Sequence record: PV611058
DNA: 64,000 nt
Direction: 5' to 3' (one strand)
From: Escherichia phage WPEC3
Shown here: positions 21,107 to 27,149 of the stretch, one piece after another
Position numbering within the stretch: the first letter of the stretch is position 1
Layout: each line of letters starts with the position of its first letter
Position numbers and translations under genes: made by a program
The notes under the pieces: model-generated
Database searches by the model: none
Told to the model about the DNA's origin: nothing
What the model saw: only the letters and a program-made list of their open reading frames with translations

Positions 21107-23836
21107 TTAATGCCAACGTGTACCAGAGCTTGAAGGAACACCAGAACTTGCAGGGATAGCAGAACCACGCTTAGTTGTACTAGGTCTGTATGTCAAGAAT
21201 CGTGTTACCTTTTCAGTATCAATTGACGTAATACTCGTACTTCCAGTAACAATATCACCAACATATACGTTTGTCAATGTCTCATCAAGAAGAGTTGTAC
21301 TGATAACGTATGCCGCTTTTCTTGTGTTACGGTTCATTTGAATGTAAAGATAAAAAGTACTGTTAGCTGGGTTAGTTTTAATAGTACTTAATTCTATGGT
21401 TTGAATCGCTAATCTATCAAACATACCACCAAGGAATACCGGAACTTCACGGGTGAAGTACACAGTGAAACCTTCAGCAACATCTTGTGAAACTACTACG
21501 ATTTTATCTTGTACTGTTCCTGAACCATCAATCAACCCATCCATCTGTGCTGATGTTGTCCCAAAGAGACTAAACACTGCTTTAGTTTGATAGTCTGAAT
21601 CTTGAAGATGATAGTATCCAAATCCAACACCTGGTATAACTCCGTGCTGGAATGCATTGCCATTATCTATGTAGCTGGATGACATAAATCGGTTAGATGT
21701 AATCAAACCATTCACTGTTTTAGCAATCATCAATTTGAATTGAGCATTACCAGGTTGTGAAAACTGATGAACTGCATCAACACCAATATAACCAAAACCA
21801 GAATACTTAGCAACAGTTAGACCAGTACAGCGTTTCATATAGGCTTCGGTTACAATACCTGTTACAGAATTAAGTGTTTCGTATCTAGAACTCACCATAG
21901 ACGCAGAACTAATATTGGTTCCTGAAACCGTGACATCAACTTCAGAATATATTGCATAACCTTGGTTATTTCCTAAGTTATATGCAGAAACCACCGCAAT
22001 AGATTTTGAGAAAGAACTATCTGGTACATAATATAAAGCAATTTTACCAGAAAATGCTCCTACTATTCCAATATTAGCAAGTATTTCTTGTTTTAATGTT
22101 TCCAGAACATTATCACCAATTGTATAAGAACCATCAAATTCTAAAGTATCTGGGTTAAACAAACCACCACTTGTTTTGTATACACCTTCAATGAATGATG
22201 TCCCATAACATTTAACTGAACCGTCAGTATCAATTAGTGAAATCATACCTGTATATTTGAAATCATCACCAAGACGAGTTCGGTTAGCTTGTGGTGCAAA
22301 ACCATTAAGTGTTGTATTGTTTTGTACTGAATTGAACTGGAAGGTTGGATCAGTACCAATTTCAGAAAATACTGTATTGTTATAACCATATGACTCATCT
22401 TCATATGTTCCAGAACATGCTAACAGTACTTTACGTTTATCAATAAAACGTGTTCCTAAAAGGTTTTCGCCTACTGCACTACCATATGTTGGTGCAACGT
22501 TTACAAATTTGGAATTGTTCGCTTTACGAGTACTGGCAACCCAACTATCATATGGTGTTCCTGTTACGTTATAAACCTGAATACCATAGGTTTCAGATGA
22601 ACTCCAACGAGCACGTGTGCTGAATACTAAACCGTCATAGGTTTGGCATATAGAACCAACGTTACCTAATTGTGGAACACCTAACTGTGTACCCATGAAG
22701 TTATTCATCTCAATGGCAAATGGGTTTGTTAATGTGAAACCATCAACATCATTATATTCCGCTGCTATTGGTGCTCTACTACTTCCATCAATTGATAATG
22801 ATTTAGAGTTGATAGTATAAACAAAACTAAAACCACTAGCATAAACAGTACTAATATATAGATTTGATACTAAACGGTTAGTTGGGAATAATGTAATTCT
22901 AATCTTTGATAAATCTGGACTTACGTTTGCTTGTATATTATAATCTGTATAATCTGAATATTCAACTCGTGTAACTGGTGAAGTGCATTCAAATAATGAA
23001 TCACTACTAGCTCCAACTGAATATAATCTTTCATAAATTTTCAAATTATTAGCACTTGTGTAGTTAACACTTCTTAAGGTTTGACCAGAAAAACCAGTAA
23101 CCTTAGCAAAAGTACTCATAGTACCATCTTTAATACTACTTGTATTAACAGTATATAATGTTAAAGCCAAACCATAGTTTGCTATAGTAGTGTCTTTGCA
23201 CCACACAAATACTTTATCATTAACGATATGTGCATACAATGGTTTATCTGTACCAAATGATGTAGCAGCGATAGAAGCGTGAATATGTGCAACTTCGTTA
23301 AATGTACCATTTGTTAAAGTGAAAATATAATTACTTGCACTAGATAGGCTAACTAGTAATTCATAACCATTCGTTCCGATGAACTGTTTAACATTTTCAG
23401 TACTTGGAAGAATTCTAGGATGATATTTTGATGTAGTACTGATAACACTACTTTGTGTTAGTGCATCAATATTACGCAAATCACGAATGAATGCATAGTA
23501 ATATCCTTCAGTACTACCATTTGTACCAGCACGTAATACCACACCAGTACCATCATCTTCGACTATTGTTGGTTGCATACGGTATACATCTGAAAGCGAC
23601 GTTGCCCCTTCGTATGAACCATTAACGTTTAATGGTAGATAATCCATTTCCCCTATACGGGAGATTGGTAACATATCAAGTATTTTTTGAACTTCTGATC
23701 TTTTATAAATTGGATAGTCAACAATACCTGTATTTGCGTCTGGTGCTGTACCATTAAAAGTACGCATAGCGTACTTTCCACCAATTGCCAAATTTCCAAG
23801 TATAGCAGCACTACCAATGATGCGTTTGGATGACAT
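21107..23836 (-). CDS. large fibre-like / receptor-binding-like structural protein (paralog B)
   Basis: 909 aa, rich in N/S/T/G/Y; N- and C-terminal domains homologous to 24453-27149; C-terminal motif ...SGVPSSSGTRWH. Confidence 0.45.
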   Translation of the reverse strand: MSSKRIIGSAAILGNLAIGGKYAMRTFNGTAPDANTGIVDYPIYKRSEVQKILDMLPISRIGEMDYLPLNVNGSYEGATSLSDVYRMQPTIVEDDGTGVVLRAGTNGSTEGYYYAFIRDLRNIDALTQSSVISTTSKYHPRILPSTENVKQFIGTNGYELLVSLSSASNYIFTLTNGTFNEVAHIHASIAATSFGTDKPLYAHIVNDKVFVWCKDTTIANYGLALTLYTVNTSSIKDGTMSTFAKVTGFSGQTLRSVNYTSANNLKIYERLYSVGASSDSLFECTSPVTRVEYSDYTDYNIQANVSPDLSKIRITLFPTNRLVSNLYISTVYASGFSFVYTINSKSLSIDGSSRAPIAAEYNDVDGFTLTNPFAIEMNNFMGTQLGVPQLGNVGSICQTYDGLVFSTRARWSSSETYGIQVYNVTGTPYDSWVASTRKANNSKFVNVAPTYGSAVGENLLGTRFIDKRKVLLACSGTYEDESYGYNNTVFSEIGTDPTFQFNSVQNNTTLNGFAPQANRTRLGDDFKYTGMISLIDTDGSVKCYGTSFIEGVYKTSGGLFNPDTLEFDGSYTIGDNVLETLKQEILANIGIVGAFSGKIALYYVPDSSFSKSIAVVSAYNLGNNQGYAIYSEVDVTVSGTNISSASMVSSRYETLNSVTGIVTEAYMKRCTGLTVAKYSGFGYIGVDAVHQFSQPGNAQFKLMIAKTVNGLITSNRFMSSSYIDNGNAFQHGVIPGVGFGYYHLQDSDYQTKAVFSLFGTTSAQMDGLIDGSGTVQDKIVVVSQDVAEGFTVYFTREVPVFLGGMFDRLAIQTIELSTIKTNPANSTFYLYIQMNRNTRKAAYVISTTLLDETLTNVYVGDIVTGSTSITSIDTEKVTRFLTYRPSTTKRGSAIPASSGVPSSSGTRWH

Positions 23837-27149: not shown

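Follow-up and report, generated by a model that had tools for sequence, protein, structure and literature searches.

The window analysed here is a stretch of 64,000 nucleotides (nt) from Escherichia phage WPEC3 (record PV611058), and we focus on a module of three consecutive open reading frames (ORFs) on its minus strand, directly beside nrdG. Gene 1 (24453-27149) encodes a protein of 898 amino acids (aa), gene 2 (23853-24440) one of 195 aa and gene 3 (21107-23836) one of 909 aa, exactly where a first-pass annotation of the window had placed them. They are preceded, in this order, by nrdD (28009-29841), a DUF4326 gene and nrdG (27226-27696), which adjoins the module upstream of gene 1; the other neighbours are a nucleotidyltransferase gene and small genes behind a sigma-70-like promoter. 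The two intergenic gaps within the module measure 12 and 16 nt, and both contain an AAGGA motif. Over 6.3 kilobases (kb) the region shares 99.6% identity with fEgEco12, a jumbo coliphage (375 kb; Asteriusvirus-like) whose counterparts of the three ORFs, g242-g244, are each labelled 'hypothetical', and ~77% with the PBECO4/121Q/phAPEC6 group (Asteriusvirus). As set out below, the combined evidence points to a late module of paralogous virion proteins that are probably built like receptor-binding proteins (RBPs).

The two large proteins align from end to end at 26% identity (E-value 3e-54), with the identity unevenly spread: 36.7% over aa 1-120, 23.4% over aa 121-760 and 42.8% over aa 761-898. 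Homologous ends and a differing centre had both been claimed at first pass, and the first of these holds; the centre is indeed more diverged, but since both proteins match the PHROG 3573 profile over their full length (E 1.4e-263 for the 898-aa and 1.2e-230 for the 909-aa protein), the centres are diverged homologues rather than different cassettes. The 195-aa protein is similar to the last ~120 aa of both large proteins (E 4e-22 and 3e-17) and shows a fainter similarity to their N-terminal ~30-65 aa (E 2e-4 and 2e-5); it keeps both terminal modules only, as had been proposed, and the three genes are paralogues that arose by duplication. The short protein also matches PHROG 26864 (E 9.5e-84), and all three match PHROG 7449, the profile of the SPN3US gp168-like body, which covers aa 55-870 of the 898-aa protein. 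Sequence and profile searches of the PDB are empty even at E <= 10, Pfam scans of distant large and short homologues are likewise empty, and the sole Pfam line, DUF5484 (E 0.13), was dismissed as noise.

An alignment of 42 homologues served as input for an AlphaFold2 model of the 898-aa protein, which is all-beta and globular (mean predicted local distance difference test score, pLDDT, 86; predicted template modelling score 0.79), with ~12 four-stranded sheets spanning aa 86-750, a single helix (aa 563-575) and a C-terminal sandwich. All parts of this layout lie on the minus strand. The N-terminal segment (aa 1-60; 26970-27149; pLDDT 29-64) ends in LP(I/L)SxYG, here LPISHYG, in which P55 and G60 are invariant in the 42 sequences. 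It is followed by a first predicted beta-propeller (aa ~86-417; 25899-26894), which carries VxLRxGTNGS, the best-conserved motif of the family, and by a second (aa ~435-750; 24900-25847), each with about six four-stranded blades as counted from the strand pattern rather than from coordinates. Next comes a predicted beta-sandwich (aa 762-865; 24555-24866), which together with an associated helix has the 'shoulders' fold of RBPs and TssK, and finally a conserved tail (aa 866-898; 24456-24554) with the sequence ...GSSFPVSYGLPSQTGTINW, disordered in the monomer model (pLDDT < 50), in which G880, G888, P890 and W898 are invariant. This tail is common to the three paralogues (...GSSFPVSxGxPxxTGTxxW, with an invariant terminal Trp), so that the two low-confidence ends of the model (aa 1-60 and aa 866-898) are still conserved in sequence. 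Gene 2 has the same N-terminal segment, ending in LPLSQYG, followed by shoulders at aa ~70-165 (23946-24233) and the tail; in gene 3, shoulders and tail occupy ~aa 787-909 (~21110-21478).

Two of the first-pass claims bear on this layout. An RBP-like architecture had been suggested, and the predicted combination of a shoulders-type C-terminal module with lectin- or sialidase-like propellers agrees with it. The label 'fibre-like', on the other hand, does not survive. Elongated trimeric tail fibres with exchanged central receptor-binding cassettes would suit a protein of some 900 aa whose termini are conserved and whose centre varies, and some records do label homologues 'minor tail protein' or 'tail fiber'; the confident model is nevertheless globular and propeller-built, with no coiled coil, beta-helix, fibre repeats or fibrous region, the window proteins contain no fibre, tailspike or chaperone Pfam domains, and the centres are homologous, not swapped. 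Identity profiles along orthologues are smooth and show no mosaic breakpoints inside the genes, on which grounds central cassette exchange was rejected, and we consider such fibres very improbable. The globular fold also counted against the 119-nm 'hairs' of CBB and phAPEC6, which were set aside as a location for these proteins in view of the homologues in GAP32 and phiKZ-like phages and the low abundance in mass spectrometry (MS) as well; the CBB authors leave open whether GAP32 carries such hairs.

The structural matches of the propellers, Foldseek matches included, are lectins, sialidases and glycoside hydrolases; the HFTV1 fibre, a phi812 baseplate protein and Mtd are also listed in connection with the fold of the protein. 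Many of the best fold matches are in fact enzymes (sialidases, GH43/GH32/GH130 enzymes and lactonases), and the polar residues D92, R99, H183, R509 and D739 are invariant in the 42 sequences, which would suit propellers acting as virion enzymes, such as a sialidase, a glycoside hydrolase or another depolymerase, that degrade surface polysaccharide. Yet identities to the enzyme matches amount to 5-10%, no enzyme family is matched at the sequence level and no catalytic constellation was identified, while non-enzymatic lectins and WD40/NHL/Kelch domains score equally well; we thus regard an enzymatic role as quite improbable.

Turning to transcription, the module has boundaries of its own on both sides, again on the minus strand. 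An intrinsic-terminator-like hairpin, AAGCACCC-AAT-GGGTGCTT followed by a T run (27203-27221; located by terminator scan and sequence inspection), ends the nrdD-nrdG unit, and just after it, 33 nt upstream of the ATG of gene 1, lies ATAAATA (27183-27189), a promoter motif of the T4 late type. The late-promoter-like element suspected before the first gene at first pass is hence borne out, and in 12/12 related loci the first gene of the array is introduced by the same succession of hairpin, ATAAATA, 31-35 nt and ATG; in most of these loci this ATAAATA is the sole copy in ~23 kb. The motif is rare in the window too, where 64 kb contain 4 copies instead of the 36.6 +/- 6.2 expected, a ~9-fold depletion. 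In phAPEC6, the full T4 late consensus TATAAATA stands at the position-1 promoter site, and 6/10 ATAAATA copies in the structural region lie 35-78 nt upstream of gene starts, that of the tail sheath gene included. The CBB authors independently propose ATAAATA as the late promoter and report a gp55-like factor, CBB_244 (PMC5259590). At the other end, the terminator scan finds an intrinsic-terminator-like hairpin that closes the three-gene unit (21078-21099); it overlaps a sigma-70-like promoter, TTGACG-17-TATAAT (21060-21088; 11/12 consensus positions), which serves the downstream small genes and marks the 3' boundary of the module, lying outside it. A sigma-70 promoter scan of the window is uninformative for the module, with 35 sites against 41 expected.

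Because of its own late-type promoter and terminators, the module appears as a self-contained late operon amid nucleotide-metabolism and small genes, and transcription of the three genes as one late operon is, judging from these sequence signals, the best-supported reading. The neighbourhood itself (nrdD, nrdG, the nucleotidyltransferase gene and the small genes behind the sigma-70-like promoter) would favour non-virion, intracellular proteins; the late-type promoter and the terminators speak against this, as do the virion data described below, and we find the intracellular alternative scarcely credible. As a separate observation, the sole further minus-strand ATAAATA in the window (35202-35208) lies just downstream of a PhoH-like gene (35494-36933) with an orthologue in phAPEC6 that is reported from virions, and it may mark another isolated late unit.

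The position between nrdG and small genes had been called unusual for such genes, whereas a place beside nrdG turns out to be the rule: in all the Rak2-like jumbo phage loci retrieved, the array follows directly after the nrdD...nrdG genes and always consists of three genes. The composition is large-short-large in the Asteriusvirus-like lineage, the window included, large-large-large in CBB, GAP32, Serratia BF, Yersinia fHe-Yen9-04 and the viral contig L013, and short-large-large (or truncated) in three further viral contigs. In a neighbour-joining tree of the C-terminal 128 aa, the proteins at positions 1, 2 (large) and 3 form three clades; as each clade spans all of these genomes, the triplication is ancient and its lineages have all persisted. 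In contigs L022, L025 and L030 the position-1 protein is short and corresponds to aa 1-78 joined to aa 774-898 of its lineage (60% identity over the C-terminal portion); by sequence it is the product of an independent, clean in-frame deletion of both propellers; the position-3 gene of L025 and L030 lacks exactly aa ~440-783, the second propeller. Owing to these deletions, natural variants with two, one and zero propellers exist, and N-terminal segment, shoulders and tail are retained in all head-loss variants. Rather than the cassette exchange proposed earlier, it is thus in-frame propeller loss, combined with faster divergence of the module and acting on three ancient orthologous lineages with homologous centres, that makes up the variation.

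The split between large and short forms extends well beyond these loci. Searching with a profile of the short protein yields only 496 cluster representatives out of 1.84 billion, and the top 150 representatives are bimodal in length, with 56 of 160-260 aa (headless, that is, without propellers) and 82 of 880-1500 aa (large); the 195-aa form is kept as a discrete gene down to 41% identity. More distant jumbo phages (~180-315 kb; Agricanvirus, phiKZ-like) combine large proteins with one to three shoulders-only proteins of ~220-240 aa. A number of distant short homologues (in L016-L018, L023, L024, L027 and L033; 216-244 aa) have a different N-terminus, with a predicted helical stretch and the motif N-P-H...T..Q.G before LPxSxYG; NPH is present in about half of the short representatives across the family.

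Compared with a 121Q/PBECO4-type relative, the module has 63-80% nucleotide identity against 84-95% in its flanks, the identity stepping from 78% to 95% at the 3' terminator of the module, and the propellers are the most variable part among orthologues. This bears on an alternative in which the proteins are TssK-like connectors or decorations of the baseplate or tail, with propellers that bind fibres or the phAPEC6/CBB whiskers and take no direct part in host recognition. Shoulders proteins of this kind do exist, TssK being one, but the faster divergence of the module and the variability of its propellers fit host-facing surfaces, loss of the head without loss of the gene would be odd for an obligatory connector, and the family is present in phiKZ-like phages too. 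We hold a connector role to be unlikely.

Evidence from virions comes from relatives. The position-1 orthologue of phAPEC6, gp323c, was identified in the virion proteome from 4 peptides covering 5.6% of its sequence (PMC7247149), and MS of GAP32 virions revealed the orthologues of positions 2 and 3, so that phAPEC6 and GAP32 together cover all three positions. In the phAPEC6 record (MK817115; our locus L002), the orthologues of the 195-aa and 909-aa genes are intact at 1605-4938 but unannotated, the only annotation in that 3.3-kb stretch being a 114-nt 'gp322c'; because both ORFs are unannotated, the phAPEC6 virion MS was unable to detect positions 2 and 3. A more distant homologue, Deimos-Minion gp19, was also detected by MS, and the family body lies within the tail protein SPN3US gp168. 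The first-pass annotation had named absence from virions together with a non-fibrous fold as grounds against its interpretation; a non-fibrous fold is what the model predicts, whereas the orthologues of relatives are present in virions. Decoration of the capsid was set aside, given the low abundance in MS and the tail location of SPN3US gp168. In CBB (locus L003, 6519-7283), just upstream of nrdG, lies CBB_144 (254 aa), a structural protein confirmed by MS with no GAP32 or RaK2 homologue; the nrdG neighbourhood thus hosts further lineage-specific virion genes.

Taken together, these data lead us to favour, with a probability of roughly 0.6, the reading that the three genes encode late, low-copy virion proteins at the periphery of the tail or baseplate, built like RBPs and not like fibres; they look like auxiliary, adhesin-like proteins of host recognition. 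The paralogues share a scaffold made up of the ~60-aa N-terminal segment with LP(I/L)SxYG, a helix plus the ~100-aa shoulders sandwich, and a ~30-aa tail ending in Trp. By analogy with lactococcal RBPs and TssK, we infer that the shoulders trimerise and clamp a loop of a baseplate partner, and the conserved tail probably takes up its structure only upon oligomerisation, in the manner of the interlaced 'neck' of the p2 RBP. In the large paralogues, two predicted six-bladed propellers (~700 aa), inserted between N-terminal segment and sandwich, would form an exposed head, and the 195-aa paralogue would be the bare scaffold, a headless form. The heads may bind host surface glycans at adsorption, as suggested by fold analogies (lectin and sialidase propellers, the phi11 RBP and phiKZ gp131) and by the faster evolution of the module.

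Given the great age of the lineages and the presence of exactly one member of each in every related genome, the three paralogues are not redundant; they may assemble together by way of the common scaffold, or each may have a docking site of its own. A tentative extension, which we think rather doubtful at present, is that they are obligate partners in an asymmetric hetero-oligomer, for instance a 1:1:1 heterotrimer, held together by shoulders, N-terminal segment and tail, with 2, 1 or 0 heads per subunit. Its attraction lies in the retention of one gene per ancient lineage and in the phiKZ precedent. If true, it would amount to a jumbo-phage-specific, 'head-number-tunable' receptor-binding complex and would explain why every genome has one gene per lineage despite lineage-by-lineage loss of heads.

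Several points weigh against the RBP-like reading as a whole. First of all, no sequence-level link to a characterised RBP emerged from Pfam, NCBIfam and PDB sequence searches, and no ligand-binding or catalytic site was identified. Second, the order of domains differs from that of the p2 RBP, and a shoulders protein may, as the case of TssK shows, serve as a structural connector and not bind a receptor. Third, the phAPEC6 MS signal is weak, and CBB_147-149 went undetected by CBB's own MS (Table 4 of the CBB paper, PMC5259590), and no RaK2 homologue is listed for them; the 'structural protein' labels of CBB_148/149 were rejected as CBB MS evidence, the label deriving from GAP32 MS. Finally, placement of the window proteins themselves in the tail rests on literature about homologues.

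Part of this picture is already on record, namely the genes, their paralogy (CBB Supplementary Table S1) and the virion presence of some orthologues. What appears to be undescribed so far is the predicted architecture of shoulders with inserted tandem propellers and the reading of the short protein as a headless paralogue, as well as the late-promoter/terminator cassette beside nrdG and the repeated in-frame loss of heads. Essentially all jumbo-phage records label the family 'hypothetical'; neither Pfam nor NCBIfam has a model for it, and PHROG lists its function as 'unknown'. A putative RBP-type shoulders scaffold with removable propellers would thus offer a concrete role, open to testing, for a virion module conserved in Asteriusvirus, Mimasvirus and related jumbo phages, of which several are under consideration for therapy or biocontrol; it would account for the odd 195-aa gene and add a likely host-range determinant outside the main tail-fibre cluster. 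Furthermore, the natural 2-, 1- and 0-propeller variants delimit domain boundaries for engineering.

Two other features of the window are worth recording. Directly downstream of the module, on the minus strand, lies a second tandem triplet of paralogues (188 aa, 20470-21036; 173 aa, 19942-20463; 169 aa, 19436-19945), with pairwise identities of 30-37% (E 3e-15 to 6e-5) and matches to PHROG 18641 and 7868, function unknown; the near-consensus sigma-70 promoter at 21088-21060 precedes this triplet (19436-21036). At 39157-39840, the window contains poly-C and poly-G runs of ~70-130 nt each and a duplicated short phage segment, together with two exact copies of an Illumina TruSeq adapter, GATCGGAAGAGCACACGTCTGAACTCCAGTCAC (39322-39354 and 39785-39817). 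These runs, adapters and duplication interrupt a 341-aa ORF (39351-40376, minus strand), presumably the Sir2-like gene annotated in fEgEco12, and the homopolymer and adapter insertions are the cause of a spike in guanine-plus-cytosine content (0.61) at 39-40 kb. The anomaly is a sequencing or assembly artefact of the source record, not biology.

Among known systems, the shoulders provide the first comparison. The p2 RBP, the 1358 RBP, gp22 and TssK share this trimerising sandwich-plus-helix, which clamps a loop of a baseplate partner, the loop being that of the Dit 'hand' or of TssG (PMC7291167). In the p2 and 1358 RBPs and in TssK, which have no sequence similarity to the window proteins, the shoulders are N-terminal and the head follows after a neck, whereas in the window proteins the heads come first and the predicted shoulders follow on the C-terminal side (aa 762-865 of 898). 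The gp22 of Bacillus phage SPP1, a siphovirus, is a shoulders-only protein of 121 aa and in that respect recalls the short paralogue; it has no sequence similarity to the window protein, however, lacks the N-terminal segment and the ...GTINW tail, and no pairing with head-bearing paralogues has been described for it. As for the heads, the RBP of Staphylococcus phage phi11 is a baseplate RBP with a beta-propeller as glycan-binding platform and is matched by Foldseek (5efv_C, E 2.4e-4), but there a single five-bladed propeller sits on a helical stem with another anchoring domain, in a siphovirus of Gram-positive bacteria.

Homology over the whole body exists with gp168 of Salmonella phage SPN3US, identified from proteomes of mutant phage particles as a tail protein of a tandem paralogue family (PMC5105663). 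Within its 1727 aa (PHROG 7449), two stretches, aa 545-682 and aa 1307-1412, correspond in alignment to aa 50-183 and aa 772-880, respectively, of the 898-aa protein. It consists of a phiKZ gp131-like fibre-anchor domain near the N-terminus (aa 22-155) fused to the family body (aa 545-1412), its extra ~540-aa N-terminus and ~315-aa C-terminus both being absent from the window proteins; the published similarity between gp168 and gp131 lies in that extra N-terminus. Direct kinship with phiKZ gp131 or gp133 was in turn rejected: hhalign of the family alignment against both gives a probability of 0.1%, BLASTP of gp131-135 against the window proteins returns nothing below E 0.6, and no entry described as phiKZ gp131 is among the propeller structure matches listed. 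The likeness to phiKZ is one of organisation. There, gp131 and gp133-135 are proposed to form the hetero-hexameric base of peripheral baseplate fibres, with the gp131 propeller distal (PMC13250141). The shared module of the phiKZ proteins is N-terminal and helical, and the C-terminal domain of gp131 is one seven-bladed propeller, whereas the window proteins have a short N-terminal segment plus a C-terminal shoulders sandwich and, to judge from the strand pattern, two propellers of ~6 blades. What the two systems would have in common is a set of tandem jumbo-phage tail paralogues that combine shared attachment modules with a differing payload and present a propeller at the exposed end.

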